Shown in pieces: positions 16,942-53,705 of a DNA stretch of 64,000 bases. Location of the stretch: IMG/VR virus record IMGVR_UViG_2883475777_000001; one strand, given 5' to 3'. Below the pieces are notes generated by a model, which ran no database searches, was not told where the DNA came from, and saw only the letters and a list, made by a program, of their open reading frames with translations. Numbering within the stretch: the first letter of the stretch is position 1; each line of letters starts with the position of its first letter. Origin of the DNA: a virus (taxonomy: Duplodnaviria; Caudoviricetes). The position numbers and the translations under genes were made by a program.

Positions 16942-16961
16942 CGGAGCGCAAGAGGCGGGAT
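16931..16961. other. Left att junction (core TTGAA plus inner arm CAAGAGGCGGGAT at 16949-16961)
   Basis: Arm is the exact reverse complement of 27361-27373. Confidence 0.85.
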
Positions 16962-16985
16962 AAGAGCGAACAATGCAGAACGCGT

Positions 16986-18824: not shown

Positions 18825-18837
18825 GATTGCCCTTTCC

Positions 18838-18905
18838 AAACCAAAGGGTGTGAATGGTAAGAGCCGCCGGCGTGTTCGCTGCACGCCGACGGCTCGCTTT
18901 GGTTT
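18838..18905 (-). promoter_or_regulatory. Nested hairpin in the integrase leader
   Basis: 14-bp stem with 1 mismatch (18861-18895) inside AAACCAAAG/CTTTGGTTT arms, adjacent to the RBS. Confidence 0.5.
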
Positions 18906-18929
18906 CAGACGTTGGGTGGTTTCGACTGA

Positions 18930-19133
18930 TCATCGGCCTTCCAAGATTCCGACGACCGCCGCCAACCTCTGGTTGACTTCAGCCATCGTTCCAACATGCG
19001 TCCATGCGATGTCGACCTCGCCGCCGGGTGCCGGTTGGTCCTGCAACAATTCGCGGATGCGTTGCAACAGGTCCTGCGCAACCAGGTGGGACGTCTCGTA
19101 GGCCGGTTCGGCTTGCAATCGTTGTCGTGTCAT
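18930..19133 (-). CDS. Small hypothetical protein, paralog of 35517-35744
   Basis: AYE..H.VAQDL.QRI.ELL.D.PAPG...W..VG...EVN.RL shared; ATGA coupling. Confidence 0.75.
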   Translation of the reverse strand: MTRQRLQAEPAYETSHLVAQDLLQRIRELLQDQPAPGGEVDIAWTHVGTMAEVNQRLAAVVGILEGR

Positions 19134-19405
19134 TTGGACGCCCTCCGTTTCTTCGCCGCCAAGGTGAAACGACCGGGGCCGGTCTTCTTGAAACGGGCGT
19201 CCTTTCCCTTGCCGATGTCTCGAATGATCGAAGCGTACAAGGTGGCCTGCGGCGTCTTGCCGCCGGGCGAGGTCCACAGGTTTTTCCTTTCCATCGCCTC
19301 GATCATCTCTTTGCAGCTCATGGGCTTTCGGGCTTGCCGCAGCACCTTGATGGCTGCATCGATCTGGCTCAGCTTCGGTTGGGTTGCGGTCTTCTTTCCT
19401 GCCAT
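19130..19405 (-). CDS. Winged-helix (HARE-HTH-like) protein, paralog of 36120-36521
   Basis: DAAIKVL...PMSCKEMIEAM...LWTSPGGKTPQATLYASIIRDI. Confidence 0.8.
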   Translation of the reverse strand: MAGKKTATQPKLSQIDAAIKVLRQARKPMSCKEMIEAMERKNLWTSPGGKTPQATLYASIIRDIGKGKDARFKKTGPGRFTLAAKKRRASK

Positions 19406-19496
19406 CGTTTCGTCTCCCAATCGGATTGGTGTTGTTGCGTCGCGAACGCCGCGACGCGTGACAGGACAGTTACCTCGCGTTTTCGGCGTCATCAAG

Positions 19497-19811
19497 CTAG
19501 GCGTTGGCATCCTTGGCCAAGTCCGCCGAATCGTCGCCAGACGGGCCAACTGTGGGCGACGGGTTGGCCATTTGGGCGTCCAGCCAAGGGTATTCGCCAG
19601 CCCGAATCGACGCTTCGATCTGTTTCAGAAATTGCCATTCCCACAGCGGGACCATTACGACGTCCTGCTTGCTGTAGCGCTGGATCACAATCGGCTCGTC
19701 GGTGTTGGCCACGGATTGATACGCCCATCCCAGGCTGTCTCGCAGGTGGGTGATCCGCATGACGTGCTCGGGCGTTGGTTCGGGCGTTGGTTCGGGCATT
19801 GGCTCGGACAT
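19497..19811 (-). CDS. Phd/YefM antitoxin-like protein
   Basis: MRITHLRDSL...V..TDEPIVIQRYSKQDVVMVPLWEW; start uncertain. Confidence 0.55.
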   Translation of the reverse strand: MSEPMPEPTPEPTPEHVMRITHLRDSLGWAYQSVANTDEPIVIQRYSKQDVVMVPLWEWQFLKQIEASIRAGEYPWLDAQMANPSPTVGPSGDDSADLAKDANA

Positions 19812-19839
19812 GTACAAGAAAGAAACTGTAGGTAAGTTT

Positions 19840-19888
19840 GCGACTGTTCCCGCGGGCGTCTCCTGAAGACGGTCGCGAGGTAGGACCC
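19840..19888 (-). other. Putative packaging (cos-like) signal, satellite copy
   Basis: 34/49 gapless identity to 39234-39282; starts with GGGTCCT. Confidence 0.6.
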
Positions 19889-19913
19889 GTTCGCCCAACG
19901 GAGGCGATTCAAG

Positions 19914-20147
19914 GTTGCCACCAAGACTGCCAACATGCCCCCGTCTCTTTTTGGTGGCAATCTTGGCAGTGTTGGCAGCCTTCCCCAAAAACACCGGGAA
20001 CCACGCGTTCCCTCTACGGCAATTTGGTGGCCATCTTCCTTTTTGGTGGCAGTGTTGGCAGTCTTGATTCGGTGAAAGATGTCCAAGGCTGCCAAGACTG
20101 CCAACTTATTGAGACGGGGGTTGGTGGCAGTCTTGGTGGCCATCTTG
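19914..20147. repeat. Iteron-like cluster (TTGGTGGCA/TTGGCAG units, both orientations); putative satellite origin
   Basis: About a dozen short units immediately downstream of the helicase gene. Confidence 0.65.
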
Positions 20148-21716
20148 ATCCGGCAGGCTCCAATACCACTTGCCACCATCCTTCTTGGACCGACCTTCGA
20201 TCTCCTTGAACGCACGCCGGAGCGTTCGCTCCGAGAAGCCGTTCTCTCTCGCATCCGCAATCACCTGTTTCGATGGCTGGCGACCTTCAGCGAGCTCGTT
20301 GCGCAACCAGGCGACGACCTCACGTCGCTCCGCGCCTTGAGTGCTCTTGTCGCTGGTCGATTTCAATTCCGCCGCGAAGGCCTCGTCGGCGTGCATGCGA
20401 ACCGGTTCGAGTTCCCATGCCACGCGGCTGTCGACGATGCGGTACGCCAGGCCGTCGGGATCGCGTGCGAGGTTTAGCTTGCCGGGCAGGAACAATCGTC
20501 GCTCGGGATTCTCCTGGTCCTTGGCCACCGCCCACACGGCGCGTGAAGCGGCCGCGAATGCCAGCGAGCCCATCGCACGGTACACCGCTTTCGCGCCACC
20601 CGACTTGCTGAGATGGGTCACAGCGACAATCGCCACCCGATGGCGGCCAGCCAAATCGGCAAGCGGCGCGAGTAGACCTCGGACATCCGTGTTCTTGTGG
20701 GAATCAACGCTGCCGGTGTAGGCCGAAATCGGATCGATCACGACCAGGCGCGCGTCGGGCATCTCTTGCATGACTTCCTCAAGGCGTGGGAGGTCGGCCT
20801 CAAGCGAGAAGTGCCGGCGTCTGCCACCTTCGGCCACGCCTTCGACGGCCACTATGTTCCCGTCGTCCGCGCCGGCCTTGTCCAATCGCGGCGCGATGGT
20901 GTCGGCCAGATCGTCCTCGGCGTTGAAGAGCACGACGCCCGCCGGCGACTGCTTGAGCAAGGGCAGGTCGGGCCACGGCTCGCCGCGCGAAACGCGAGCG
21001 GCGATGTCCAGCGTGACGAATGACTTTCCCAGACCTGGATCGCCGGCCAACAGAGTCAGCTTGCCCAGCGGAATCCGCCCAGGCCACAACCAGTCAAGTA
21101 GTTCACGTTCCACGTCTTTCAACCTCCTCTTGATCGCGTGAGGCGGTGCCGGTGGTCGCCAGAGCGGCGCTGGTGCCGGTGTTGGCTTTGCCGGCTTCGG
21201 TGCCTCAAGCATGCCGCGCAGTCCCTCCGTCAGAAAATCCTCGGGCCGTGGCGGTGGTACGATCCGCTTCGGATTGATCTCCGCTTTCGCCCACGCATCG
21301 ACCGCCTTCTGCCACGGCGGCACAATCTCGTCCGCGACTTGGCCGTTGGTCGCACCCGCTTCGCACAGTTCCCACCAGAGTTGCTTGGCCATCTCCATTG
21401 CCTGGCAACGTCCGCGCGTGCGACATGCGGCAACCTCGTGGCCCGTGTGGTAGACCACCTGGTCGCTCTCCATGTCGGGATCGCCGTACATCTCGGCGCT
21501 CGGCACGAGCAGTTCGGCTTCCCGTCTTGCCTGCCGCCGGTCGTTCCAGGCCAGGGCGATGGCTGCCTCGTCGGGCGCATCCCAGGTGGCGACCACCATA
21601 GCGCCCTCCATGAAGGCTTGGCGATAGACGCGTTCGTTGGTTTGGCGCTCGGGCGTGACAGGCCAATGCGGACCGTCGTCGTAGAAGCGAACCGTCTCAG
21701 GCGGCAGCGTCACCAT
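20106..21716 (-). CDS. AAA_25/RepA-like helicase
   Basis: WLWPGRIPLGKLTLLAGDPGLGKS, FNAEDD, LVVIDP, THLSK, GSLAF. Confidence 0.88.
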   Translation of the reverse strand: MVTLPPETVRFYDDGPHWPVTPERQTNERVYRQAFMEGAMVVATWDAPDEAAIALAWNDRRQARREAELLVPSAEMYGDPDMESDQVVYHTGHEVAACRTRGRCQAMEMAKQLWWELCEAGATNGQVADEIVPPWQKAVDAWAKAEINPKRIVPPPRPEDFLTEGLRGMLEAPKPAKPTPAPAPLWRPPAPPHAIKRRLKDVERELLDWLWPGRIPLGKLTLLAGDPGLGKSFVTLDIAARVSRGEPWPDLPLLKQSPAGVVLFNAEDDLADTIAPRLDKAGADDGNIVAVEGVAEGGRRRHFSLEADLPRLEEVMQEMPDARLVVIDPISAYTGSVDSHKNTDVRGLLAPLADLAGRHRVAIVAVTHLSKSGGAKAVYRAMGSLAFAAASRAVWAVAKDQENPERRLFLPGKLNLARDPDGLAYRIVDSRVAWELEPVRMHADEAFAAELKSTSDKSTQGAERREVVAWLRNELAEGRQPSKQVIADARENGFSERTLRRAFKEIEGRSKKDGGKWYWSLPDQDGHQDCHQPPSQ

Positions 21717-21864
21717 CGTTGGCCTCCGCTTGTTTCCGTCGCTTCTCGTAGATGTCGATCAATACGGCGGCCCAGGCGTCGGCGACTTCCTCAGGAAGCT
21801 TCTCCTTCGTATCCGGATCCTGCCGGCGCGCATCCTCAGCGCACGGTGTTGACTTGGTTCTCAT
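21697..21864 (-). CDS. Small hypothetical protein (55 aa)
   Basis: GAGAGGG RBS; EEVADAWAAVLIDIYEKRR helix; overlaps the helicase start. Confidence 0.5.
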   Translation of the reverse strand: MRTKSTPCAEDARRQDPDTKEKLPEEVADAWAAVLIDIYEKRRKQAEANDGDAAA

Positions 21865-21989
21865 GACCCTCTCCTCGAAACCGCGAATTCTGCTGTCGCA
21901 GAGACAAATCGGCGTCGCGGCCTGCAAGTCCTGGTGCAAGCCACGATTCGCCACGCGGGTGCGGGCCAGTCCATTGAGTGCGGCGCGGA

Positions 21990-23831
21990 CTATTCGCCGT
22001 CGGCCTTGTACGCGGCGCGATAATCGCCCAGCGCGGAACCGAAGTCGTGATAGACTCGCCACGTCGCGGCGAGCTTGTTGGGATCGGCGTCGAAGCCGAA
22101 AAACTCAACCGTCGGGCTCTGCTTGCCCTGCAGGAATGCCACGACGATTGCCGCGTCCTGCCGGCCGGCGAACAGATACCATGCCTTATCGCTGGTGCCG
22201 GTGAAGCGAGCTGAGTTCGACAGCCGCGGTTCGACCTCGAGCGACACGACGTTCTTGAGGGCATTGCCCGTCGGCTCGTCGTTGTTCGCCCGCTGGATAA
22301 AGTCGGACTGCAGCAGCTCCTTGGCGGTCTGCTGCAACTCGGGCGGCACAAGTAACGTGCGAGGTCGGATGTCGAGGTCGCGATCCTCGTCGTCCCGCTG
22401 CGCCATCATGCGAGCGATGCCGGTCGCCAGCGCGATCGCGTCGAGCGTCGATCCGGCACCGGTGTCAAAGTTGCCGTTGCCGGCGCTGAAGAACGAGCCG
22501 GCCCCACCGAGCAGCGTCGTGTAGGCCAGATCGCTGACCGCGCGCATGGCCGCTCGACCGAGCGACATCGCCGTGTCCTCGAACAGACCGAGGTCGTCGT
22601 TGATGATGTCGCGCCGGTCAATCGACAGCATCTTGCCAAAGGTATCGACCGAATACTGGTAGGTCGCCTCGTCGATGCTGCCGTGCTTCAGTTCGCCGCC
22701 CGGCGCAACCTGCGTCAGGTCACCGGTATCACTCGGTCGGATGCCGGTGTGATCCTTGAAGTCGGCAGCCGACTTGATCGCCGCGAACGCACGCCAGGTG
22801 GCCGGCGACTCGGTGTAAGCATCGAGAAGCACCTTGTTCGCCGCATTCCCAAGCGCGACGGGAAGAGAGTAAGTCGACAGCGCCGCGCGGATCAGGGCCT
22901 CGCGTCCCGATGGCGCGTCGCGCTGTTCGACCATCAGTGCCGCCCGGCATAGATCAACGAGGCTCGTGGCCCGCAGCTCGCGGGCTTGTTGGGCGGTTTG
23001 CGGGCCAAGGTGCTTCTCGACCAGATTCTCGTGGCCCATGTGGACCAGCACGGCCGCTTCGATCACGTCGCGCGTGGGCGCGACCGTCGTCGTTTGGATG
23101 TACGGACCGCGCGGGCGCGACGCTCGCAGCACGGCCAGTTCCGTCTGCTGTCCGGACCAGCCTTCTCGGATGGCCTGCGCCTCGATGTCGCCGTGTTCGC
23201 CATTGCAGGCACGACGAATCGCCGTGATCCGTTCGGTTTCGGCAGCCGCTTCGGCACGGATGTCCTCGGCGGTTTTTTCTGTGGTTGTCATGAGAGCCTC
23301 TTCTCCTTCCTGCGAAGCGGCGATCGCGACCGACGTTCCGGCATCGGCACCAATCGCCACAATGCTGACTTCCTTGAGCGCGGACGACCGCACCAGCGTG
23401 AACCCGCTACCGGTCGCCCTGATCGTCCGCCCGTTTACTTCAACAATGTCGCCGGCGCGTACTCGCTTCGATTCGCCCGGAGCAACACCGACCGACGCCT
23501 GAAACTGAAACCCGCTGCGAGCCAGCTCGATGATCTGCTTCGCGGCCTCATTGGTGGGCGCGATCGTGCCGGCGACTAGCAACTTGCCGTTGGCGACCGA
23601 CGCCTGCCCGAAACCCACAACACCTCGCAGCGTAGAGTCGTGGTCGGCCAGGATGCTGATCTGAGACGCCGAGACGTCGACGCCGGCCAGGTCGAGAACT
23701 AGCGGTCCCCATCCAGGCACGACCATCTCACCGCCTGTGTAGGCGACGATGGTGACGGCCGGCGTTTTGCCGGCGGCCTGAATATCCACGTCGCTTGTCG
23801 CGAGCAGCAGTTCTTCAGTCGCTGTGGACAT
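21990..23831 (-). CDS. Second protease-major capsid fusion (satellite-encoded)
   Basis: IVAYTGG, FQFQASVG, QVAPGGELKHG, LSIDRRDIINDDL, YHDFG: divergent homolog of 14472-16505. Confidence 0.88.
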   Translation of the reverse strand: MSTATEELLLATSDVDIQAAGKTPAVTIVAYTGGEMVVPGWGPLVLDLAGVDVSASQISILADHDSTLRGVVGFGQASVANGKLLVAGTIAPTNEAAKQIIELARSGFQFQASVGVAPGESKRVRAGDIVEVNGRTIRATGSGFTLVRSSALKEVSIVAIGADAGTSVAIAASQEGEEALMTTTEKTAEDIRAEAAAETERITAIRRACNGEHGDIEAQAIREGWSGQQTELAVLRASRPRGPYIQTTTVAPTRDVIEAAVLVHMGHENLVEKHLGPQTAQQARELRATSLVDLCRAALMVEQRDAPSGREALIRAALSTYSLPVALGNAANKVLLDAYTESPATWRAFAAIKSAADFKDHTGIRPSDTGDLTQVAPGGELKHGSIDEATYQYSVDTFGKMLSIDRRDIINDDLGLFEDTAMSLGRAAMRAVSDLAYTTLLGGAGSFFSAGNGNFDTGAGSTLDAIALATGIARMMAQRDDEDRDLDIRPRTLLVPPELQQTAKELLQSDFIQRANNDEPTGNALKNVVSLEVEPRLSNSARFTGTSDKAWYLFAGRQDAAIVVAFLQGKQSPTVEFFGFDADPNKLAATWRVYHDFGSALGDYRAAYKADGE

Positions 23832-24411
23832 TGGTCGCCTCCTGCGGTTCGAGTTTGGTTCCCTGCGGGAAGAACCGGATGTAGGCGTACTCGTTCGGAT
23901 CGGTGGACGGTTCGATCACGGTGACCAAGCCGAGCACGTCGAAGCTCGTCGAGAACCCCATCTTGTAACGAGCGGCTGCAACGCGACGCGCCTTCACGCA
24001 CTGGCCGAACCGCAGGTTGTTGACCCAGCAGTAGTGCGTCCAGGACGACCATCGGTCCTGGTCGTTCTCATAGATCCACTCGGCGGCCGCGTCGATGTCC
24101 TCCTTGCTCCACTCGAGCCAATCGTTGCCCGTCCAGGTCATGCCTGGCCGCGCTCCCTTCGGCTGGACGATTCCTTTCTCGGCGAGCTGCCAGAGGTAGA
24201 TGCCGTCGACGTACAACCCTCGGAGACGCAGTTCGCGGAATGCGCCTTCCGTCGACTTGGGATAGATCAGCGCCGTGCTGGAGTTGCGACTGCGCATCTT
24301 CTCGTCGTCGATGTTGGGTAGCAATTCCATCAACTGATCGAAGTCCTCGCGGAGCCAATAGTGCTTCTTGTCGGCCCGGGCTTCGCGGTCCTGCTGTTCA
24401 GTTTGCCTCAT
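23815..24411 (-). CDS. Hypothetical protein (198 aa)
   Basis: Coupled to the sigma gene (ATGA) and overlapping the capsid start; AGAAGGA upstream. Confidence 0.7.
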   Translation of the reverse strand: MRQTEQQDREARADKKHYWLREDFDQLMELLPNIDDEKMRSRNSSTALIYPKSTEGAFRELRLRGLYVDGIYLWQLAEKGIVQPKGARPGMTWTGNDWLEWSKEDIDAAAEWIYENDQDRWSSWTHYCWVNNLRFGQCVKARRVAAARYKMGFSTSFDVLGLVTVIEPSTDPNEYAYIRFFPQGTKLEPQEATNVHSD

Positions 24412-24917
24412 CCTTGTTCTCCTTCTTTGATGATTGAGAGTTCGCGTTGGACGGTTCGCTTGGGAATTCCCGTCTCCCTGGCGATTTCGTCGACCGTGCA
24501 GCCGGCCATCCACAGCGTGCAGACTTCCCGCCTTCGTTCCGGCAGGCTGCCGAGATAGTCGCGAATCAACCCGTCGACGGCCGGGTCGCGACAACGCGAA
24601 GTGCGCGGCGTCGCATAACCCTCGATGTTTCCCGGCTGGTTGTCAGAGTCGATTCGTGAGACAGCCTTCGGCTCGCGTTTGCCTTCCGAGTAGAAGTCAC
24701 GGAGGAGGTTGTACTGCCGGCTCGCCATGCGGTTCTTGGCAAGACCGACGTCCTTCGTCTCACACAAGACCTGCCAGCCGGCCAGAAACAGCTCCTGAAT
24801 CGCATCCTCCGTGCGATGGTCGTCCCAGCCATGCGGTCGCTTGGCCGCGATGAGTTTCTTGACCAACGCCTCCGCAAACGGGTGGAGATCATCGGGGGTG
24901 TCGAAGTAATCGGTCAT
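24408..24917 (-). CDS. ECF-like sigma factor (satellite)
   Basis: EDAIQELFLAGW (region 2-like) and LPERRREVCTLWMAGCTVDEIARETGIPKRTVQREL (region 4.2 HTH). Confidence 0.75.
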   Translation of the reverse strand: MTDYFDTPDDLHPFAEALVKKLIAAKRPHGWDDHRTEDAIQELFLAGWQVLCETKDVGLAKNRMASRQYNLLRDFYSEGKREPKAVSRIDSDNQPGNIEGYATPRTSRCRDPAVDGLIRDYLGSLPERRREVCTLWMAGCTVDEIARETGIPKRTVQRELSIIKEGEQG

Positions 24918-25251
24918 CCAATCTCCTTTGACCGGCAGGCTTCCTGCGTCTACTCAACTAATCCACGCGCCTCCGCGCAAACGCGCCATCGTAGACTCGA
25001 AATCTTCTTGAGACCTCGGCCTCCATCGGATCGTCAGTTGTTTGCGTATTAGCTGCGCGGAAATATCACTGATTTTTCTCATGTCCGACGATTGAACTCG
25101 CGTTGCAGAATGATAAACTGGGCAATTTAGTGGAGGCGAGAGCAGTTCGCTGCCGATTCGTGGAGTCGCTGAAACTTTTTGGACTCCGAAGTCGTCTCTC
25201 CTTGATAGAGAGGTTTCCATTTTCCCTAGCCGGCCAACCACGAGGTGTCAA

Positions 25252-27237
25252 ATGCAAAGACGATTCACGGTTGTTATCACAACCTTACTGTTGACTCTCT
25301 CTTCTACTGTTTCTTATGCCCGCACCTGGACCGAGCGGTCATCCGGACGAACAGTCAATGCAGATCTCGTCTCCTTTGCTGGCGACGTCGTAAAGATCAG
25401 ACGCCAGAGCGATGGCAGAGTCTTCGCTGTCCCCGTCGAACGGTTGAGCGACGTTGACCGAACCTTTGTGGAATCTGCTTCTCAAACGCGCCCTGAGGCA
25501 ACGCCCCGAAAAGGCAACGTTAGGTTTGTGGCGTTTAATGCGCAGGCCCAGGATGAGTACAGTGCTGAGCAACTCAATGCGTCGAAACGCATCGTCTGTG
25601 TCTGGAAAAAAGGCACGGCTCAAGCAGCCATGAGGACGATTGAAGCGGTCGGTCTGAAGGTCACGTACCTTGGCTCTGCAATCCCGTTCGGCGTTTGCAC
25701 CGGACAACTCACCGAGGACGGACTCAAGCGGCTGAGGAGCGACCCGTCGATCCAAAGTGTCGAACCTGACATCGAGTTGGTCGTTGACGACGCGCAGCCC
25801 GAAGTGCGGCAGATTACGGACGAAGTCTTGGCAGCATACGAACACGCTGGCCGTATGGTGTGCGTCTGGAAGAAGGGGAAGAAGAAGGAAAGTCTCGAGA
25901 TGCTTGCGCAAATGGAGAAAGAAGGAAAGCTGCGCGTGATTCACAAACTCGAGACCACTCCAATCGCCTTCTGTGACTGGAAGCCGCCACTGCAGCAAGC
26001 AACGCTGGTGCAACTGCAAAAATCGCCAATGCTGGATTACGTTGAACCAGATTTGACGCTGGTGAAGGACAACCCAACCAAAGGTCGAGAGATTGTATTC
26101 CCGAACGGGACACCCAAGACGGTCGTGTCTAAAGGCGTTGTACTGACCACGCCAGATGATCCAGAGATTGCCAAGCTCTGGGGAATGGATTCCATCAAGG
26201 CGAAGAAGGCGTGGACCTGTGCCAACCAAACAGATGTTGTTGTGGCAGTGATCGATTCGGGCGTCGATTATAATCATCCGGACCTGAAGGCCAACGTGTG
26301 GGTCAATACGGGTGAGATCCCTAACAACGGAGTTGATGACGACAGTAACGGCCACAAGGATGACTACTACGGCCTGAACTTCACTCAACTTCCACCTACA
26401 ACGGATACGCTCGATAGATACGGACACGGTAGCCACGTCGCCGGAACTATCGGTGCCGTTGGCAACAACAAGCTCGGAGTCGCAGGCGTCAATTGGCGTG
26501 TGCAGGTCATGGGACTCAAAGTTTTTGATGACGCTGGAACTGCACCAGTTGGAAGCGCTCTAGCTTCTGCCATCGATTATGCTGTCGCGAGGAAAGTTCG
26601 CGTCATCAACTTGAGTCTTCGCTGGGGAAGTGAGCGGGCTTTCTTGAAACGTGTTATTGATGGAGCGGAAGACAAGGGCGTTCTGATTGTATGCTCAGCT
26701 GGCAATCTAAATCGTGGTGATGATCCACGCACGATTGATAATGACGTCGTGCCCCAGTTCCCCGCGTCCTTTCCGAATGACAACGTCATCGCGGTTGCGA
26801 ACATCACGGAGAGAGAACAGCTTAATGCGAGTAGTCATTTTGGATTGCGGAGCGTCGATTTGGGTGCTCCCGGGACAGACATTTACAGCACTGTGCCAAC
26901 TTCTGTAAAGGCATCGGGTTATGACTCGTACACTGGGACATCCATGGCAAGTCCGCATGTCGCAGGTGCGGCGGCGCTGATTTGGGGACATAAGAGGTAT
27001 AGCAGTGGCGATTTCAAGGCGATTCGAAAGCTACTTCTAGACAATGCTCGCTCAATTCCCGCGTTGTCGGGAAAGTGCGTAACTGGCGGCACTCTTGACA
27101 TTGGCTTCTTGTGTAAGCAGAGCCCGCCACCTATCGGAAAGAAACCGCCAATCGTGATTTGCCCCCCACCTCGTTGTTACATCCCGTGTCCCCCGCGCCG
27201 CCACGTCTTTTATCGCTTCCGTTGTGGTAGTCGGTAG
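25252..27237 (+). CDS. Secreted S8 subtilisin-like protease with SHD1-like N-terminal domain
   Basis: Signal peptide; RTWTERSSGRTVNA (SHD1-like); two I9-like propeptide repeats; triad VIDSG, HGSHVAG, GTSMASPHVAG. Confidence 0.92.
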   Translation: MQRRFTVVITTLLLTLSSTVSYARTWTERSSGRTVNADLVSFAGDVVKIRRQSDGRVFAVPVERLSDVDRTFVESASQTRPEATPRKGNVRFVAFNAQAQDEYSAEQLNASKRIVCVWKKGTAQAAMRTIEAVGLKVTYLGSAIPFGVCTGQLTEDGLKRLRSDPSIQSVEPDIELVVDDAQPEVRQITDEVLAAYEHAGRMVCVWKKGKKKESLEMLAQMEKEGKLRVIHKLETTPIAFCDWKPPLQQATLVQLQKSPMLDYVEPDLTLVKDNPTKGREIVFPNGTPKTVVSKGVVLTTPDDPEIAKLWGMDSIKAKKAWTCANQTDVVVAVIDSGVDYNHPDLKANVWVNTGEIPNNGVDDDSNGHKDDYYGLNFTQLPPTTDTLDRYGHGSHVAGTIGAVGNNKLGVAGVNWRVQVMGLKVFDDAGTAPVGSALASAIDYAVARKVRVINLSLRWGSERAFLKRVIDGAEDKGVLIVCSAGNLNRGDDPRTIDNDVVPQFPASFPNDNVIAVANITEREQLNASSHFGLRSVDLGAPGTDIYSTVPTSVKASGYDSYTGTSMASPHVAGAAALIWGHKRYSSGDFKAIRKLLLDNARSIPALSGKCVTGGTLDIGFLCKQSPPPIGKKPPIVICPPPRCYIPCPPRRHVFYRFRCGSR

Positions 27238-27272
27238 CGGCTTGCAGAGTGACGACTAGTAGTGCTAGTTAC

Positions 27273-27308
27273 GCCCAGCAGGAGCATTCCTGCTGGGCAT
27301 TTCTTTTT
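27273..27308 (+). terminator. Rho-independent terminator after the subtilase
   Basis: GCCCAGCAGGA-GCAT-TCCTGCTGGGC (11-bp stem) followed by ATTTCTTTTT. Confidence 0.8.
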
Positions 27309-27360
27309 GACTCAATGACGTTGATACAGAAATGCCGAATCGAACAGGTTGTTGACGAAA

Positions 27361-27394
27361 ATCCCGCCTCTTGAACGCCCTTCTTGAAAGGCAT
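27361..27394. other. Right att junction (inner arm ATCCCGCCTCTTG at 27361-27373, core TTGAA at 27384-27388)
   Basis: Inverted copy of the left arm; portal homology resumes at 27389. Confidence 0.85.
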
Positions 27395-28372
27395 GTTCAG
27401 GCAGCGGGCAATCTCGTTGAGAATCTCGTGCTTAAACTCGCCATAGGTCGTCGCGGGCTGTTCGGCTTCGAGCTGGCTCATCTTCCAACCGCCAGGCATG
27501 GTGAGCAGCGCCCGCTGTTCCAGTTCGATGGGCTCGAATGGTTCGGCGGCGTCCGCCTCGCCGTTGGCTGGCGCGTCGGTGTAGAGGATGCCGGCGAAGT
27601 CGGCAGCCGTTTCAGCGGCCGCAAGCACGGCCAGCGTGAATCGCCGCAACTGTGCAAACAGCGGCAGCGCCGGCATGATGTCGGGAATGCCGCGTGCCTG
27701 GCCGGGTCGGTCGAGGCGGAACAAGTGAATCATCGCTTCGGCGGGCAGGCGGTCGTAGTCTCGCGTCAGCCGAACGGCTTCGCCTGGATGCGACTTGAGC
27801 ACGTGGTATTCGATCGGATTGCCGGCGTCGTCAAACACGATGCCGTCGATGCCATTGGTGATCAAAGCATTCAAGTCGGGCGTGCAAACCTGGTCGGCTT
27901 CAATCAACCGCAGGTCGAGTTGGATCGCCGTCGGCAGCACGGGATTGCTTGTCAACACGGCGAACGCTTCACCGTCCTGGGCGCGCGACATTCGCATCGT
28001 GCGAAGTTTCTCGGGCAGGTTGACGGCTCTGGACCACGCGCCAAACTCTCGTTCGATCCGGCGATTGGCGTCGGCGTCATCCGTCAGTACCTGCAGCCGA
28101 GGTCCGGTGCCGATCGCGTCGTTGGCCAGCGTCAACACAATGCCACGGGCGTAGCTGTTGTTGGCTACCTCATAGCGTGCTCGATTACGCAGAATGCGAC
28201 GTACCTCGGCGCTATTGGCCGCGTTGGCGGACAGTCCATCCGCGCCGGCCCAATGCCGACGGTTATCGTCGTTGGTGACGGCCGCATCGTAGCGGGCGCG
28301 AAGCACTCGCGCGGCCCGCGTCAACGGGCGGCTAGTCGTCTTGGTGAACAGATTGGCGAGCCAACGGAACAT
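27389..28372 (-). CDS. Portal protein, 5' part (lambda family); restored gene would be 487 aa
   Basis: RYDAA, LRNRARYEVANNSYARG, DGEAF, RPGQARGIP, EIARCLNMPF; ORF-track tail to 27269 is read-through into the element. Confidence 0.92.
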
Positions 28373-28570
28373 TTAGGATGCTCCTGGTGGCACGAGTTTG
28401 TTGAATGCAAGACCACGACGCTTTGACTTGGCTGCTTCCTTCGAGGCCAAGTACTTGTCGGCCGCGATTTGATCGGGGAGCTTGTGCTGCTCCACGGACC
28501 CAGCGTCGCCGGCAGCCTTGGCAGGCCCTTCGGCGTTTTCGCGGATCGTGTCTTTGAGGTCGTCGGCCAT
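28373..28570 (-). CDS. Head-to-tail joining protein (gpW-like)
   Basis: 65 aa immediately before the portal; GSVEQHKLPDQIAADKYL. Confidence 0.65.
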   Translation of the reverse strand: MADDLKDTIRENAEGPAKAAGDAGSVEQHKLPDQIAADKYLASKEAAKSKRRGLAFNKLVPPGAS

Positions 28571-28729
28571 TGAGGTCTCCAATCGCAAGCGAGAACAACG
28601 CCTGCCTATTTGAAGACCTACCCGGTCACTCTCGTGAATGACGAAAGACAAGGAGAAGAAGGCAGAATCGTGCTACATGTAGCGAGGTCGGAGCCTCAGG
28701 GCCATGAACGTAGCGGTCGACGAAGGAAC

Positions 28730-29560
28730 TTAGCGCAAGTCGGGTGTGCGCCTGGAGAGGACTGCAAGGACCTCGTCATGGCCCCATCTGGAACCGACCT
28801 CCTTGCGTCGATGTTGAGCCCACCCGCTTGCCGACATGTGATGCTTGGCATCAAGGATGGTGGCGTCCGCGCCACGGTTCAATAGAAACGACACCATGTT
28901 CGGCTTCGCTTCCCATGCCGCCCAGTGCAATGCGGTCGCTTTCCCATCCGTCACGTTCACATCCAGACCGCTATCGAGCAAGTATTCCACGAGGGGTACA
29001 CGATCGCAGACTGCGGCACACCTCAGCACATCAAAGACTTGCTCATCGGAAAAGGATGCCGACTCAAGGTCCGCCCGCACTCGATCGAGTTGTCCAGCTC
29101 CGGCCGCGATTCGTGTCGATAGGATTTTCGCACCCTCTCTTACGAGCAGGTCGACAACTTCGACCATGCCGAAATGAACGGCGAAATCCAGCGGCGTGCC
29201 ATCGGGGATGCCGGGATACGAGGCAACGGCTTCCATGTTCGCGCCGGCGTCGATCAAAACTTCCGCGACGCCCGCTTCTCCCAAACTCGCTGCGCCGTGA
29301 AGAGGCGTTTCGCCTGCGCCGGGAAGTCCGTCCACCGGCGCGCCCGCGTCGATCAGAATCTGTGCCAACTCCGCCTGCCGGCCATGATCCCAGAGTTGAT
29401 TGAAGGGGCCATCGCTCAAGAAGTGAAGCGGCTCAGTCTGGCAGCTGTTCAGAATGCTGCCCCAGCGGATCGGCGTGGAAGCTAGTTTTGGGTTTTCATT
29501 CAGAAGCTGTCGGGCGCGTTCGACATCGCCAGCGACAATCGCCTTCTTAAGTTGACTCAT
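28730..29560 (-). CDS. Ankyrin-repeat protein
   Basis: GETPLHGAASLGEAGVAEVLIDAGA, GTPLDFAVHFG, ATALHWAAWEA. Confidence 0.9.
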   Translation of the reverse strand: MSQLKKAIVAGDVERARQLLNENPKLASTPIRWGSILNSCQTEPLHFLSDGPFNQLWDHGRQAELAQILIDAGAPVDGLPGAGETPLHGAASLGEAGVAEVLIDAGANMEAVASYPGIPDGTPLDFAVHFGMVEVVDLLVREGAKILSTRIAAGAGQLDRVRADLESASFSDEQVFDVLRCAAVCDRVPLVEYLLDSGLDVNVTDGKATALHWAAWEAKPNMVSFLLNRGADATILDAKHHMSASGWAQHRRKEVGSRWGHDEVLAVLSRRTPDLR

Positions 29561-29561
29561 T

Positions 29562-29978
29562 TCATTGGGCCTTCAATCCTGCCACAACCTGGCAGCAGTC
29601 TGATTTCTTTTGAGTCTGGCATTCCTCGAGCGCGTTCTTCAACACTTTGCGGACGTGCCGAAGATCCTTCAGCCGCTGCTCGATGTCCGCCAGTCGCTCC
29701 TCAATCAGGCTCTGCACGTTGCCGCACGTCGGAATGCCGCCTTCGTCGTCGGAGAGCAACGCCTTCACGTCCTCGAGCGTAAACCCGATCGCTTGTGCCG
29801 CGCGGATGAACTTCAGCTTGTTGAGCGACTCACCGCTGTACAACCGGTAGTTTCCCTGGCTGCGATTCTCGGGTTCAACGAGACCGATTCGCTCATAGTA
29901 GCGAACAGTCGTTGTCGGAATGTCAGCCGCTTTGGCCAACTGGCTGATGGTGTATTCGTCGGGCATGGCAATGCTCAA
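29562..29978 (-). CDS. MerR-family divalent-metal regulator
   Basis: YTISQLAKAADIPTTTVRYYERIGL; Cys at PTC, EEC and SDCC match the Hg/Zn/Cd/Pb-sensing subgroup layout. Confidence 0.92.
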   Translation of the reverse strand: MSIAMPDEYTISQLAKAADIPTTTVRYYERIGLVEPENRSQGNYRLYSGESLNKLKFIRAAQAIGFTLEDVKALLSDDEGGIPTCGNVQSLIEERLADIEQRLKDLRHVRKVLKNALEECQTQKKSDCCQVVAGLKAQ

Positions 29979-30021: not shown

Positions 30022-30053
30022 TTGACCTTGCACTTAGGTGCAACCTCGATAAT
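30022..30053 (+). promoter_or_regulatory. MerR-type promoter/operator
   Basis: TTGACC, 20-bp spacer, GATAAT; dyad TTGCAC-TTAG-GTGCAA (30028-30043) inside the spacer. Confidence 0.85.
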
Positions 30054-30094: not shown

Positions 30095-31285
30095 ATGAAC
30101 CAGAACGCGGCAACCGCAACCAGACAGACGTGCCCGACTTGTGGCCAAAAAGCACGACGTGTTTCGCTTCACACGATTCGCAGCCTGTTGAAGGAACCCG
30201 CTGCATCAGGATTCCAAAACGGCGAATCGTGTTGCCAGACCGATGGAACGGGATGTCACGCAATCACCGAAGACACCGGCTGGCGTTTCTGTGACTCGCC
30301 GGCATGCGACGTTGTGTACTTCGCAGAGCAGAGTGACGATACGTTTGTCAAATCACAATTGAAAGTTGACGTGGGCGTCAAGGAGACAGCTGGCGACCGC
30401 CCTCTCTGTTATTGTTTTGACCACTCGGTGACCAGCATCAAGCGTGAGCTGGAGGCAACGGGAGAATCGACGGCGGTCGAGGATATCCGCTCCCGGATGA
30501 AAGGAGAGGGGTGCCATTGTGAAGTGACCAACCCCAGCGGATCCTGTTGCCTCGGAAGCGTGGCCAAGGGAATCGAAATCGCGAAGGGTGAACTGGTTAC
30601 GACGGAGTCGCACATTGATTCCAAACCTCCTTCGGGCCGGGGAGAGAAGATCGCCAAGGTCGGGACCATCGTCTCTGCGATCATGGCATCGAGTTGCTGC
30701 TGGCTCCCGTTGGTCCTATTGGCCGTAGGCGTATCCGGTGCCGGCATCGCGGCCGCGCTCGAAACCTATCGGCCCCTGTTCATGCTCATCACATTCGGGT
30801 TTCTGGGAGCCGCCTTCTACTTCACTTACCGGCCTCGGCCAGCAAGCGATGCGAACCAGGACGCGTCGTGCTGCGACTCGACGATGGTAGGCGAATCAGA
30901 CTGCTGTGCGCCCGAAACGACGTCGCGCTGGAGTATGGCCGCGATGAACAAAGTCATGCTGTGGGTCGTCACTGGGCTGGCGATCGCGTTCCTGGCCTTC
31001 CCAAGCTATGTCGGTCTGCTCTTCGGTGCAGGACACAACGTGGTCGTAACCGATGATATGAACCGCGCGGTTCTCACAATTGAGGGCATGACTTGTGAAG
31101 GATGCGCGACGACAGTTGCTGAAGCGATCAAACGTGTGGACGGTGTGATCGCGGTGGAAGTGAACTACGAAACGAAGCAAGCGACCATCGGGGCGGAAGA
31201 CTGCTGTCCCGTGCCGATTAAGGAAATCCAGTCTGCTCTCGCCAAGGCCGGTTACGCCGGCGAGCCAATCGACCCAACGGACTAA
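30095..31285 (+). CDS. Fusion: Cys-rich CopZ-N-like metallochaperone + MerT-like transporter + HMA (MerP-like)
   Basis: CPTC, FCDSPACDVVYF, LCYCF, NPSGSCC; SSCCWLPLVL...TYRPLF transmembrane segment; GMTCEGC. Confidence 0.85.
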   Translation: MNQNAATATRQTCPTCGQKARRVSLHTIRSLLKEPAASGFQNGESCCQTDGTGCHAITEDTGWRFCDSPACDVVYFAEQSDDTFVKSQLKVDVGVKETAGDRPLCYCFDHSVTSIKRELEATGESTAVEDIRSRMKGEGCHCEVTNPSGSCCLGSVAKGIEIAKGELVTTESHIDSKPPSGRGEKIAKVGTIVSAIMASSCCWLPLVLLAVGVSGAGIAAALETYRPLFMLITFGFLGAAFYFTYRPRPASDANQDASCCDSTMVGESDCCAPETTSRWSMAAMNKVMLWVVTGLAIAFLAFPSYVGLLFGAGHNVVVTDDMNRAVLTIEGMTCEGCATTVAEAIKRVDGVIAVEVNYETKQATIGAEDCCPVPIKEIQSALAKAGYAGEPIDPTD

Positions 31286-31312: not shown

Positions 31313-32575
31313 ATGAGCCGTTTTGCTTGCATAGCCCTGCTTTGCCTGCCCGTCGCAATCGTTGGATGCGGCCGCACGAGTACGGAGAATCCAAACGGTA
31401 CGTCGTCAACCGCGTCGTCCGAATCGACTGTCCACATTCACATCAGCGGCTTCAAGAAGAGCAAAAGCGGCGCGACGTGAATGTTGTGACCGAACACGGT
31501 CAAAGAGGCCCTGGAAGGGTCTGACGCAGTCACAATGGTTGAGATGCATCTCGATCGAGACGTATTCGATGTCACGTTTGATTCATCGAAGGCGCAAGCG
31601 TCCGATCTCGTCGCCATCATCGCCGAGGCCGGCTACTCGGCGAGAATTATCACGGGCGATACGTCCGAACCTACCGTTGCCGATGTCGACTATCCCGCGC
31701 TTTTGCCTTCCGTATTCGACCGGGCGAGATCCGCCGGCAAACCGGTCGTGTTGTACTTTGGGGCGTCATGGTGCGTTCCTTGCCGCCGCATGTCCCAAGA
31801 AACGTTTGCAGATCCGACGGTAAAAAGCCTGCTCGACCGCTGCATCTTTGAGAAGATCGACGCCGACGAGCGAGCCGACTTGTCAAAACAGGCGGGTGCG
31901 AGGGCTCTCCCCGACGTGCGATTCGTTTCCGCCGACGGGAAGGAAATGAAGAGGATCACCAGCTTTCTCGGCCCGAACCTGTTCGCGGACGAGCTGCGCC
32001 AATTGCTAGGTGATGAGCCTGTCGACAACACAGTCGAAGAAGGCAAGAGCGTCGAGTTGCATGATCTCTCGCCCGAAGCAGACCAGCTGCGCGAGGCCTT
32101 CGTGAAGGCCAGCGGTAAAGTGAGAGTCGTAATGCTTGTCTCGCCTGGCTGACCGATGTGCGTCGAAGGGGCCCGTGCGGTCCATAGGCAGGCTACCAGC
32201 CAGATTGAAAGTCCCGACTTGGTGATTTTCGTTGTGTGGTTGCCGCGATATCCGGGGGACAACCGCGAGAAGGCCGTCACCGCCACCAGGAACGTATCTG
32301 ACTCGCGGGCTCACCACTTCTGGGACGCCGAAGCCATGCTGTCAAAGCGTTACGGACGGATCTTGGGTCTGCCGGAAGGTAAACAATTCGCGTGGGACAC
32401 ATACATGGTGTTCGACGCGGATGCGACTTGGATCGACACACCGCCGACGCCCGCCAACTGGATGCATCAAATGGGCGGGGCACTTGGCCGCAGCCATCCG
32501 CGTTGGCTTGATCCTGATAGATTCAAGGGCTCGCTAATTGAATTGCTAAAAGAGCCAGACCGCAATCAACCTTGA
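31313..32575 (+). CDS. Predicted triple-selenocysteine lipoprotein: HMA-like (UxxU) + thioredoxin (CxxC) + redoxin-like (UxxC), 420 aa
   Basis: One frame from ATG 31313 with lipobox IVGC. In-frame TGA at 31478, 31487 and 32150 give GAT-U-ML-U-PNTVKEAL and VSPG-U-PMC. WCVPC in the middle domain. Joins track ORFs 31535-32152 and 32156-32575. Confidence 0.8.
31500..31524 (+). promoter_or_regulatory. Putative bacterial SECIS hairpin 1
   Basis: AGGCCCU-GGA-AGGGUCU stem; loop G lies 32 nt and 23 nt after the first two UGAs. Confidence 0.6.
32169..32183 (+). promoter_or_regulatory. Putative bacterial SECIS hairpin 2
   Basis: GGGCC-CGUGC-GGUCC; loop G lies 22 nt after the third UGA. Confidence 0.55.
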
Positions 32576-32580
32576 TTCAT

Positions 32581-32772
32581 TCAGACGCGATTTGGAGGAG
32601 CCTGGACCGGCGACTCGTAAGTCACGATCTTGCGGCTGCAATGCCGGCACTCTTTGCGGCGGCGAATACGGCCGTCACGCAGCGGTTCCGTATGCGTGGT
32701 GTAGAAATGCCGGCAGCCGCACCGTGGGCATTCGATGCCGCGATTGGGTTGTTGTGAGCCGGCCTGATTCAT
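32581..32772 (-). CDS. Small Zn-ribbon protein (CxxC...CxxC)
   Basis: ECPRCGC...RRRKECRHC; ATGA overlap with the terL stop. Confidence 0.75.
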   Translation of the reverse strand: MNQAGSQQPNRGIECPRCGCRHFYTTHTEPLRDGRIRRRKECRHCSRKIVTYESPVQAPPNRV

Positions 32773-35039
32773 TCGCGACGCCTCCGCTGCAGTTCGGCGA
32801 AGCTGACACGCTCGCGTTTGGCGGGACCAAATGCGCTCCCTGTTCCAGCGAGCACCGCCCCCTGAATTGAGGCGGCCACAGCGCAGCCGACTAGACAATC
32901 AAACCAGTGGTTGTCGCCGCGTTCTGGTCGCATCTTCCATTCGTCAACCGTGCGGCCGCGGCCTTCGGTCTTCACTCGATACTCGGCCGACAAGTGCTCG
33001 GCAAAGAGACGATGCTGGTCGGCGCTTTCGCCAAACAACGACAGGCAGCCACGGTCACCCATCGGCACCGCCAGCCGAGCGTGCACGAATGTTTTCCAGA
33101 AGTTGGTGTCGTAGACGACGTGGCGCACAGCACGCTTGCCGGCCACATTGGGCATCCGCCAGTTGTGTCCGACCCGGTCGCCCGGCCGGCGCTTGTACTC
33201 GGAGAAAGGCTGACTCGATGCGCCAACAAACCGGCCGTGACTGGGAATGATGACGCCGGCGTGTGCGGATTGCCGGCAGAATTGATAGACCACGTCAGTC
33301 GATGCACCCCAGTTGGCGTCCACCAGGCAGCGTTCGATTCGCAGCATGGCACCATCATCGCGCCGCCATTCGCGACCGAGATGCGACGTCGTCAACTGTT
33401 CGAGTCCCGCATAGATGGACCCTTCCAAACCACTCGCCTTCGTCGCCAGCGGCAGCGTGAGCCGGGCATCTCGCAGCGTAAAGTAAGGCCGCTGTTGGTC
33501 AGGAAACTCGCCATAGTCGACGACATAGCCGGTGAAATCGTCTTCCCACGCTGCGACGACGTAGAACAGTAAGTTCCCTTGAACGTCCACAAACATCGTC
33601 AGATGGTTGCAGCCAATTGGCAGCACGCCTCGCTGCATGCGATTGGTCTTGGCGGCGATTTGGTCAGGCGACAGTTCGTCTGCTTCGGACGTTTCCTCGG
33701 GTAGTGGCTCGTTCTGGTACTCTGCGAAGAACGCCGCCTCGTCTTGCAACTTGAGGTTCATCGCGTGCTGGATCGCCGACTCTTCATCGTGGTTGAATCG
33801 TTCTTGCCAAGCCACGTCAGCGCCGGCATCCATTGCTTCCCGATTGGCCGCGTAGAACTCGGTCGCCAGTCGGATGTCGCCGTGGGCGCGGAGGCTCTCG
33901 CCGCGAAGTTCGGCGTAACGCTGCCACAGCTTCTCATCGGTGGGAAACGAATACACCATCTTCGTGCGCTCGCCGTTCCATTCCGGATGCTTGTCGCGGC
34001 ATAAAATGTTGTCAGCCATGTCGCTGGGGCGGATTACCGTACAGGGCATGATGCCGCTGATCTTCTTGCCGGGACCAGCCAGACCCAGGATAGCGCCTGC
34101 GAGTATTCCCTCGCGCGTCGCGCATTGCGACAACGACCGAGCCGACTCGTCGGTCTGCGGATCGTCGAGCACGACCAGTGAGGGGCGAACGGTATGTCCG
34201 TCCGAACGCTTGTATTTCATGCCGCGAATGCGGCCAGTAATGCCAGCGACCTTGATGATCGCCCCGCTCGCGGCGCTGCCGGGCATCGAAGGAAGCACGA
34301 CCTCGCGGGCCGTCCAACCGATGTGCGTTCGCTCGCCCTTGAAGAGTTGACCGTTGCAGCGATTGGCGATTCCATCGAGGCACTGAATCGGATAGACGAC
34401 CTCGGGGAAGTCTTCGAGCAACAGGTCGTTGCCGTCGAGTTCCATCTTGATCGAGTCAAGCATATCCATCGCATGCCCTTCGTCGCTGCCGATGAGACAC
34501 ACGAACTCGCGGTGGCCGTTGAGCACGGCCCAGATGCACGCGCATTCGCAAATCGTCGTCTTGCCCGAACCGCGAGGCATCGCCATCGCGAATAGTCCGC
34601 CGCGCAGCACGGCCTGCTCGATCTTGCCGATCACTTTCAAGTGGTCGGGCGACCACGGGAGGTGGAACGTCAGCGGAAAGTAGGTCTCGCAGAAGAATCG
34701 AAAATCGGATGCTGCCCGCGCTTTGCGGTCCCCGCTGACGACCTCGGGCAGTTCACCAATGTCGCGGCCGGCAATGGCAAGCGCGACATTGCGAGCGCGA
34801 GCGCGATCCTTCAGCTTTTCATACGGATCGCCGTCGGGCTCTGGGCGCGGCGTGTGCCGAATCTCCACGAGCCACGCGACGTACCGCAGCAAGTCTACGA
34901 AACGTGCATCGCCGATTCGCATGCCGGCCCGCGTTCGATGGCGATGGAGCTGCCGTTCATTGATGACCTCGCCCAACGGCGTCGAGTTCAACAAGCGGCA
35001 CAATTCGCTCGGTCGTAGTTTCCGCGGGTCAGTTGCCAC
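32769..35039 (-). CDS. terL: Terminase large subunit (GpA-type)
   Basis: AMPRGSGKT Walker A, VVLDDPQ Walker B, FVDVQG nuclease Asp, NHWFDC. Confidence 0.92.
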   Translation of the reverse strand: MATDPRKLRPSELCRLLNSTPLGEVINERQLHRHRTRAGMRIGDARFVDLLRYVAWLVEIRHTPRPEPDGDPYEKLKDRARARNVALAIAGRDIGELPEVVSGDRKARAASDFRFFCETYFPLTFHLPWSPDHLKVIGKIEQAVLRGGLFAMAMPRGSGKTTICECACIWAVLNGHREFVCLIGSDEGHAMDMLDSIKMELDGNDLLLEDFPEVVYPIQCLDGIANRCNGQLFKGERTHIGWTAREVVLPSMPGSAASGAIIKVAGITGRIRGMKYKRSDGHTVRPSLVVLDDPQTDESARSLSQCATREGILAGAILGLAGPGKKISGIMPCTVIRPSDMADNILCRDKHPEWNGERTKMVYSFPTDEKLWQRYAELRGESLRAHGDIRLATEFYAANREAMDAGADVAWQERFNHDEESAIQHAMNLKLQDEAAFFAEYQNEPLPEETSEADELSPDQIAAKTNRMQRGVLPIGCNHLTMFVDVQGNLLFYVVAAWEDDFTGYVVDYGEFPDQQRPYFTLRDARLTLPLATKASGLEGSIYAGLEQLTTSHLGREWRRDDGAMLRIERCLVDANWGASTDVVYQFCRQSAHAGVIIPSHGRFVGASSQPFSEYKRRPGDRVGHNWRMPNVAGKRAVRHVVYDTNFWKTFVHARLAVPMGDRGCLSLFGESADQHRLFAEHLSAEYRVKTEGRGRTVDEWKMRPERGDNHWFDCLVGCAVAASIQGAVLAGTGSAFGPAKRERVSFAELQRRRRE

Positions 35040-52933: not shown

Positions 52934-52937
52934 GTGT

Positions 52938-53692: not shown

Positions 53693-53705
53693 GAGATTTC
53701 CTCAA

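Follow-up and report, generated by a model that had tools for sequence, protein, structure and literature searches.

Can a reading frame that is broken by three stop codons be a gene, and if so, can the cell that carries it make the product? This question is raised by a 64,000-nucleotide stretch of DNA from a virus of the Caudoviricetes (Duplodnaviria; IMG/VR record IMGVR_UViG_2883475777_000001), in the following called the window. Its plus strand holds at 31313–32575 a frame of 420 codons plus a terminal TGA whose only internal stops are TGA triplets at codons 56 (31478–31480), 59 (31487–31489) and 280 (32150–32152). TAA and TAG do not occur inside it, and the other two frames of the same segment contain 11 and 16 stops. 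A preliminary description of this DNA had proposed a lipoprotein with three selenocysteines (Sec, U) that traps or relays mercury or another metal, the TGAs lying at positions of metal-binding or redox cysteines. Translation with TGA as U confirmed these positions exactly. The frame would encode a lipoprotein signal, a heavy-metal-associated (HMA)/MerP-like domain, a DsbD-gamma-like thioredoxin (Trx) domain with CxxC and a TlpA-like domain. TGAs 1 and 2, spaced by 9 nt, give the two U of a U-x-x-U motif (T-U-M-L-U-P) in the predicted HMA fold, and TGA 3 gives the U of SPG-U-PM-C at the N-terminus of helix α1 of the C-terminal Trx fold. As a whole the earlier reading was supported in part: the TGAs are ancestral Sec codons, and decoding in the host itself did not hold up.

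We searched 400 genomes from the same family as the host in all six frames. In the following, G000 is the host genome carrying the window, other G numbers are related genomes and L numbers are loci. The closest genomic homologues have 34–50% identity to the window protein; ten of them have TGA at both HMA positions, and in six all three TGAs or the third are present. Four full-length three-domain copies (G505, G673 and two in G753; 40–43% identity) carry the same three TGAs, a partial copy in G768 keeps the third, and homologues consisting of the HMA and Trx domains carry the same two (G559, G578, G725, G463 and G470). The aligned TGAs share columns inside GFKKSKSG-x-T-U-M-x-U-P and S-P-T/G-U-x-P-C, the lipobox is present, and a TAA or TAG is reached only past full length. 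Among 12 stand-alone homologues of the C-terminal domain, which are exported or lipoproteins from across the phylum, nine have TGA at the respective position, two have Cys and one has neither.

The closest copies are metagenomic (L107–L109, from ERR3484147, SRR23274236 and ERZ1688206). L107 and L108 are intact tri-TGA genes at about 85% and 72% identity, and L109 is a partial copy at about 90%. Altogether at least 211 family loci were found in JGI metagenomes. The HMA motif was read in 40 of these and is UxxU in 39 and RxxU in one, with CGA in place of TGA; the Cys form, CxxC, was seen neither among these motifs nor in the genome loci whose motif was read. Profile scans of species-representative genomes gave 22 loci, belonging to Pirellulaceae, other Planctomycetota, Blastocatellia and metagenome-assembled genomes (MAGs) labelled Heliobacteriaceae. 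The placement of TGA at Cys positions, recurring in genomic homologues (34–50% identity) and in metagenome copies (72–90%), is thus beyond chance. The preliminary description had suggested a look at these sites in homologues; they carry Sec, not Trp. One might suppose that an ordinary Cys gene has suffered chance nonsense mutations or sequencing errors and is a plain pseudogene. Nothing except the presence of the stops speaks for this, and it is refuted by the same TGAs in homologues at 34–90% identity, by the lack of any Cys motif among the HMA motifs read and by the covarying hairpins described below, leaving it a practically negligible probability. The comparison identifies all three TGAs as ancestral Sec codons that occupy metal-binding or redox sites.

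The family is easily overlooked. A protein-database search at full length (231–737 aa) returned nothing because the databases cut the gene at TGA; a search at shorter length recovered fragments. These entries are pieces of about 202 and 118–139 aa only, which bears out the suspicion that gene callers mis-split the gene, and metagenome protein fragments at 70–88% identity show the same split points as the window gene. In IMG/VR neither a scan with the single protein nor one with the alignment found a family member, and a scan of genome contigs with the single protein gave nothing. No Pfam or NCBIfam model covers the family, and no NCBIfam model reached its cut-off for any of eight members.

Downstream of the TGAs we found three hairpins resembling Sec insertion sequence (SECIS) elements. 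Hairpin 1 (31487–31502, +; 6 bp) includes TGA 2 in its 5’ arm, hairpin 2 (31505–31523, +; 7–8 bp, loop GGA) follows 16 nt after TGA 2, and hairpin 3 (32169–32183, +; 5 bp, loop CGUGC) follows 17 nt after TGA 3. The first two were scored in an alignment of nine distinct sequences (A2), the third in one of 15 distinct sequences (A3). In A2, hairpin 1 (columns 10–15/20–25) is 90.7% paired with one compensatory pair, and hairpin 2 (columns 28–35/39–46) is 91.7% paired with three. Taken together, 91% of the cells pair with four compensatory pairs, and the covariation score was reached by none of 500 column shuffles and lies above all slid controls. In A3, hairpin 3 (columns 20–24/30–34) is 85% paired, compared to 31–51% for slid controls, was likewise matched by none of 500 shuffles, and shows five pair types at pair 21–33. 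The gapless alignment of distant C-terminal-domain homologues has a one-base register shift in three sequences. A conserved stem-loop, as expected of a SECIS element, thus appears to lie shortly downstream of the TGAs.

Selection acts on the whole frame. Pairwise ratios of non-synonymous to synonymous substitution (dN/dS; Nei–Gojobori) are 0.11–0.24, including both sides of every TGA. On the branch leading to G000 alone, 35 synonymous stand against 17 non-synonymous codon changes, so that there is no sign of long neutral decay. These data also bear on the idea that the pieces between the stops work as separate proteins, namely a 205-aa Trx protein from an ATG at 31535 and a 139-aa protein from an ATG at 32156. 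Both open reading frames (ORFs) do begin with ATG, and the second ATG, the M of U-P-M-C, lies 3 nt after TGA 3, where re-initiation is possible. However, neither the signal peptide nor the Sec residues are part of such pieces, the first would begin inside the HMA fold, conservation, low dN/dS and hairpins continue across the TGAs, and the homologues end with TAA or TAG only at full length. We regard separate function of the pieces as unlikely. Because of the conserved TGAs, the covarying hairpins, the low dN/dS and the gene context, the frame is best described as a selenoprotein gene by descent, a member of a conserved family of predicted exported lipoproteins.

Can the host read it? The G000 genome is a single contig of 6.50 Mb, 99.5% complete and without N. 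ARAGORN listed 81 tRNAs in it, none of them tRNA-Sec and none with a UCA anticodon. The best match to the tRNA-Sec model RF01852 reached 43.8 bits (cut-off 47) and lies on a tRNA-Ser; in Sec-using relatives the score is about 63–73. For SelB the best match of G000 has 153 bits and covers the GTPase part only (cut-off 242.25; Sec-using relatives 344–407, full-length matches), for SelD 62.6 bits (cut-off 125; relatives 249–313), and for true SelA 148.5 bits (cut-off 267.9; relatives 507–581). The latter match is a SelA-like protein, full-length at G000:C1:2350515–2351834 (L019), which is presumably a pyridoxal phosphate enzyme of other function; the sister genome G001 has one too and is without SelB, SelD and tRNA-Sec. 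We therefore discarded the Pfam SelA match (110.9 bits) as Sec machinery, as it is a below-cut-off paralogue found also in the Sec-lacking G001. Neither SelB nor tRNA-Sec was found in 12 genomes of the host genus (G000 and 11 others searched); of the remaining genera of the family and order, about half have them. Global recoding of TGA was rejected because TGA ends 9 of the 20 genes checked in the window and, across the genome, 251 long frames. We also rejected a suppressor tRNA or a tRNA of the phage, since none is located in the window and the genome has no UCA anticodon. As for other tRNA genes, G000 has two arrays at C1:726249–730102 (26 tRNAs) and 3314592–3315243 (7 tRNAs), a tRNA-Cys of unusual length (81 nt) at C1:4385961–4386041 and a tRNA-Asn about 300 nt past the right window end.

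Decoding by the host itself, as the preliminary description had assumed, is thus contradicted by the gene content of the contig. Two observations had been named there as speaking against its reading, a host lacking the machinery and homologues with Trp or another residue at the sites; the first was made and the second was not, the homologues having Sec. Since tRNA-Sec, SelB, SelD and true SelA are missing, the product is not possible as a selenoprotein in this cell, and judging from the gene content it is very probably not made. Because host and genus are without the Sec-decoding apparatus, translation should stop at codon 56, past signal peptide and linker. A working selenoprotein in this host, with UGA read as Sec and the lipoprotein trapping Hg, would agree with the intact frame, the SECIS-like hairpins, the MerR-type promoter of the operon and the purifying selection on the G000 branch. 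It is nevertheless very improbable, as the genome is closed, 99.5% complete and free of N and yet yielded none of the four components, and as the search of 11 further genomes of the genus revealed neither SelB nor tRNA-Sec.

The other carriers show how the gene fares with and without the machinery. All eight carriers of unbroken copies have Sec machinery: SelB was found in G673, G753, G768, G559, G578, G725 and G463, and tRNA-Sec in G505. In two further carriers neither SelB nor tRNA-Sec was found. One is G470 (88% complete; L071, G470:C229), whose copy has an internal TAA. The other is G591 (95% complete; L070, G591:C739), whose copy is 62% identical to the C-terminal domain of the window protein, has SPG-U-PM-C in common with it and contains an apparent frameshift near the C-terminus. 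By sequence both look like decaying stranded copies. G000 is the exception, with an intact copy in a Sec-null host. That UGA is read without Sec, as Cys or Trp by a near-cognate tRNA or by some other recoding, giving a low yield of protein with some function, has in its favor the intact frame, the low dN/dS on the terminal branch and the fact that UGA is the leakiest stop codon. But three such events would be required per molecule, no suppressor tRNA with a UCA anticodon exists, prophage and host genes use TGA as a normal stop, and in G470 and G591 the copies are broken, so the gene was not maintained there. We consider this quite unlikely.

The window copy is thus probably a recently acquired, intact and untranslatable selenoprotein gene, stranded as prophage cargo in a Sec-lacking host. 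Several observations weigh against this reading or parts of it. The intact copy and the purifying selection on its own branch fit a recent arrival, but they also fit some use in the host. The closest copies, L107–L109, are metagenome contigs without an assigned host. Single-sequence folding energies of the hairpins do not differ significantly from those of shuffled sequences (z −1.75 to +1.3), so the case for SECIS elements is built on conservation in a small related set. Regarding the identity of the metal, the MerR-family regulator of the cassette stays below the equivalog cut-off (NCBIfam MerR 109.7 bits, cut-off 150.85) and scores about equally as ZntR (107.8 bits, also below cut-off), and MerA was found neither in the cassette nor in the host (best whole-genome match 396.9 bits, cut-off 454.45).

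What would the protein do in a cell able to make it? The predicted signal peptide (31313–31369, +) contains the lipobox I-V-G-C with Cys19 at 31367–31369, confirming the lipoprotein signal reported earlier; G18 and C19 are invariant in eight homologues. For the whole protein, AlphaFold gave a model of modest quality (predicted local distance difference test, pLDDT, 64.8) with an HMA fold at residues 37–113, a Trx fold at 132–232 and a second Trx-type fold in which U280 starts a helix at 281–297. The HMA/MerP-like β-α-β-β-α-β domain (31421–31651, +) carries the motif GFKKSKSGAT-U-ML-U-PN, with U-x-x-U placed in the β1-α1 loop of the predicted fold. Pfam HMA (PF00403) matched residues 51–108, covering T-U-M-L-U-P, at 29 bits (gathering threshold 24.8), and Foldseek found MerP (1osd) with a TM-score (TMt) of 0.85 at 30% identity as well as HMA7. 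The middle domain (31685–32008, +) holds W-C-V-P-C at 31769–31783, so this motif, seen before in the frame, belongs to a DsbD-gamma-like Trx domain. Pfam Thioredoxin_2/7 matched residues 135–227 above cut-off (43 bits), the NCBIfam model of the DsbD/TsoB C-terminus likewise points to this domain, and the structures 1vrs_D and 2fwf of DsbD-gamma matched with TMt 0.71–0.74 at about 30% identity.

For the C-terminal domain (32081–32551, +), the assignment changed. The preliminary description had named an HMA-like and a redoxin-like domain; the former was borne out and the latter was not. The label Redoxin (PF08534) was dropped, as it reached 26.8 bits for the whole fusion only, in two stretches, and was not reproduced by the domain alone. 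A Pfam scan of the isolated domain gave no match for the window copy and none in 19 of 20 members, and a sequence comparison with the PDB gave weak matches only (E 7e-4). Modelled alone with 20 homologues the domain reached a pLDDT of 91.9, and Foldseek matched the model to TlpA/ResA/CcmG/DsbE-DsbF reductases (E 2.7e-6 to 1e-4, TMt about 0.6). The domain is thus TlpA/ResA/CcmG-like by predicted fold, with the active-site motif U-x-x-C beginning helix α1, and has family motifs of its own, S-P-x-U-x-x-C-x-x-G and W-M-H-Q-L-G. In the Blastocatellia-type MAG contigs L100 and L102 the TlpA-like UxxC protein is encoded by a separate gene immediately upstream of an HMA(UxxU)-Trx gene; by sequence, a fusion of these two linked genes seems to have given the three-domain protein of Pirellulaceae. 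As a separate observation, one metagenomic tri-Sec family member has UxxC in the Trx domain too, and L061 (G031:C159), from a SelB-containing relative, is a lipoprotein thioredoxin whose Trx motif contains Sec (W-U-P-P-C).

The gene context is of mercury type. The tri-TGA gene starts 27 nt behind a gene of the same operon (30095–31285, +) encoding an all-Cys fusion of CopZ-N (zf_CopZ), MerT and HMA domains, in which MerT (PF02411) scores 47.4 bits (threshold 32.9), indicating a MerT-type transporter. Upstream lies a MerR-type promoter (30022–30053, +), read directly, with −35 TTGACC (30022–30027), the dyad TTGCAC-TTAG-GTGCAA (30028–30043) and −10 GATAAT (30048–30053). A sigma-70 scan reported no plus-strand site at 30022–30053, because it permits spacers of 16–18 nt only and the spacer here, containing the dyad, is 20 nt. 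The divergent MerR-family regulator (29562–29978, −; NCBIfam) has Cys85, Cys120 and Cys127/128. The cargo further includes a gene for an ankyrin-repeat protein (28730–29560, −), co-directional with merR and without homologue in the related loci. Both copies in G753 have the same MerT fusion directly upstream (56–58% identity to that of the window), and this locus additionally holds genes for MerR, a MerC-like/Trx protein, a MerR-MerB fusion and an AhpC/Redoxin protein. In G045, MerB is encoded beside Sec-HMA and Sec-TlpA-like genes, and one metagenome copy adjoins a metal-efflux set of the resistance-nodulation-division (RND)/outer-membrane efflux protein (OEP) type. A role in handling Hg or another soft metal, as proposed before, is reasonable because the homologous loci carry MerB, MerT, MerC-like and MerR genes.

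In Sec-decoding hosts, the diselenol U-x-x-U of the HMA/MerP-like domain might bind Hg(II), organomercury or another soft metal on the outer side of the membrane and pass it to the co-transcribed CopZ-N/MerT/HMA transporter. The DsbD-gamma-like CxxC and the TlpA-like UxxC domains could pass on electrons and so maintain the oxidation-prone selenols in their reduced state, the latter acting on selenols as TlpA does on the Cu-binding Cys of ScoI. The three hairpins 3’ of the TGAs would serve as SECIS elements. In G000 the MerR-controlled cassette would be accessory prophage cargo.

Parts of this arrangement are known. UxxU had been called rare in the preliminary description; the motif itself is confirmed here, and its occurrence in an HMA fold is not new. 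HMA selenoproteins with UxxU have been listed as “putative mercuric reductase, UxxU, 2 Sec” (PMC13188914, PMC9312934), and Trx-fold selenoproteins with UxxC as “Redoxin family UxxC” and “thiol:disulfide interchange UxxC” (PMC13188914). The window gene belongs to an undescribed family variant. The model NF041115 (UxxU_metal_bind) describes an HMA-type fold with two Sec in U-x-x-U and matches window residues 52–114 with E 2.8e-8. However, the window scores 33.8 bits against a curated cut-off of 95, which none of eight family members reached (best E 2.6e-12), and the model is a single domain of 74 positions, whereas in the window family the motif GFKKSKSG-x-T-U-M-x-U-P is carried by a lipoprotein fused to one or two Trx-fold domains. 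With MerP (TIGR02052; 1osd) the protein shares the fold, the predicted exported location, the adjoining MerT-type transporter and the MerR-type promoter. It is not a MerP equivalog (35.3 bits, cut-off 92.55), and differs by UxxU in place of GMTCxxC, by its lipid anchor, by the fused redox domains and by the lack of MerA in cassette and host.

The middle domain resembles DsbD gamma (1vrs, 2fwf) and the C-terminus of the selenoprotein TsoB (NF045694) in fold and CxxC, but serves here as the linker domain of a lipoprotein, outside any DsbD membrane protein. The C-terminal domain shares its fold with TlpA, ResA, CcmG and DsbE-DsbF (1lu4, 1kng, 1su9, 1jfu, 4txo) at just 7–19% identity; TlpA offers a functional parallel, as it holds the Cu-binding Cys of ScoI and CoxB reduced. 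Sec in mer-type metal traffic is also known from the MerT/CopZ fusion-like selenoprotein NF045683 and from a “putative mercuric transport protein” selenoprotein. The window neighbor at 30095–31285 has the MerT+HMA architecture of NF045683 (59.4 bits), but stays below the 375-bit cut-off and is all-Cys, Sec being found in the partner lipoprotein instead.

The claimed location on a prophage was confirmed by the flanks of the cassette. The 4-kb segment with the ankyrin, merR, merT fusion and tri-Sec genes lies between the large terminase gene (TerL; 32769–35039, −) on the right and, on the left (27269–28651, −), a gpW-like gene (28373–28651) and the N-part of a lambda-family portal gene (27269–28372). 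Related terminases (L111–L123; 84–90% identity) also occur outside the genus and the family within this order, in Sec-using and Sec-lacking hosts, among them G056 (90%), G028 (87%), G051 and G049 (85%) and G001 (85%). Nothing is inserted at the TerL/gpW junction of four related prophages (G001, G028, G029 and G051:C177), and two others have different cargo there: an AbiE toxin-antitoxin pair (G056) and an MmeI-like methylase together with DUF7689 (G051:C265). The same junction being empty or differently filled in relatives, the cassette has the properties of a moron in a prophage hotspot. The G+C content at third codon positions is 0.65–0.74 in the cargo and 0.73–0.82 in phage structural genes. 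Near the homologous loci of the relatives no phage genes were found. Transposon-like repeats flanking the cassette were considered and rejected, as only short, chance-level repeats occur.

Phage morons and accessory-gene hotspots are a well-known class. The window cargo resembles them in its location at one fixed junction, and differs in its content, a metal cassette with a key gene that depends on a translation system absent from the lysogen. It is conceivable, if doubtful, that the module for mercury or another soft metal is a host-conditional, Sec-dependent moron of a temperate phage lineage, of use only in lysogens that decode Sec and present here, still intact, in a host that does not; as far as found, this would be the first bacteriophage-borne selenoprotein gene. 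Less likely still is a variant in which the host reads all three UGAs without SelB or tRNA-Sec. Three damaged close relatives on metagenome contigs (L104, L105 and L106; 81–86% nucleotide identity) were observed in other surroundings. L104 has a frameshift after about residue 329 and lies beside an OEP/RND efflux set, and L105 and L106 have their 5’ end cut and adjoin a DDE transposase. None of the three has flanking sequence related to that of G000, and the gene thus moves from one genome to another.

The results concern annotation first of all. With at least 211 metagenome and 22 genome loci, a large family of two- or three-Sec lipoproteins at mercury-type loci is hidden, and such genes will be missed or mis-split in gene calling and in surveys of resistance genes. 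The predicted metal site of the family is, in the loci read, a diselenol and never a dithiol. The twin UGAs 9 nt apart with two covarying hairpins provide a natural test case for the spacing of bacterial SelB and SECIS. Furthermore, an intact selenoprotein gene brought by a prophage into a Sec-less genus ties a function to a translation system that does not travel with it, which bears on the gain and loss of the Sec trait, on selenoproteomes and on the host range of phage lineages.

The prophage itself shows further insertions. The lambda-family portal gene is split (16462–28372): its N-part ends with N-M-P-F at profile position 326 of 354, and its C-part, on the minus strand beside a serine integrase, continues at about 16.94 kb with N-V-A-A-G-N-S-S-G-Y. 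The insert of roughly 10.4 kb encodes this large serine integrase (16986–18884), a primase (20106–21716), its own protease-capsid fusion (21990–23831), a sigma factor and a subtilase. Beyond the replication genes of the prophage, on their right side, lie a type I restriction-modification set at 50163–56081 (HsdM 51317–52933, HsdR 53706–56081) and, at 59022–60611, a second large serine recombinase.

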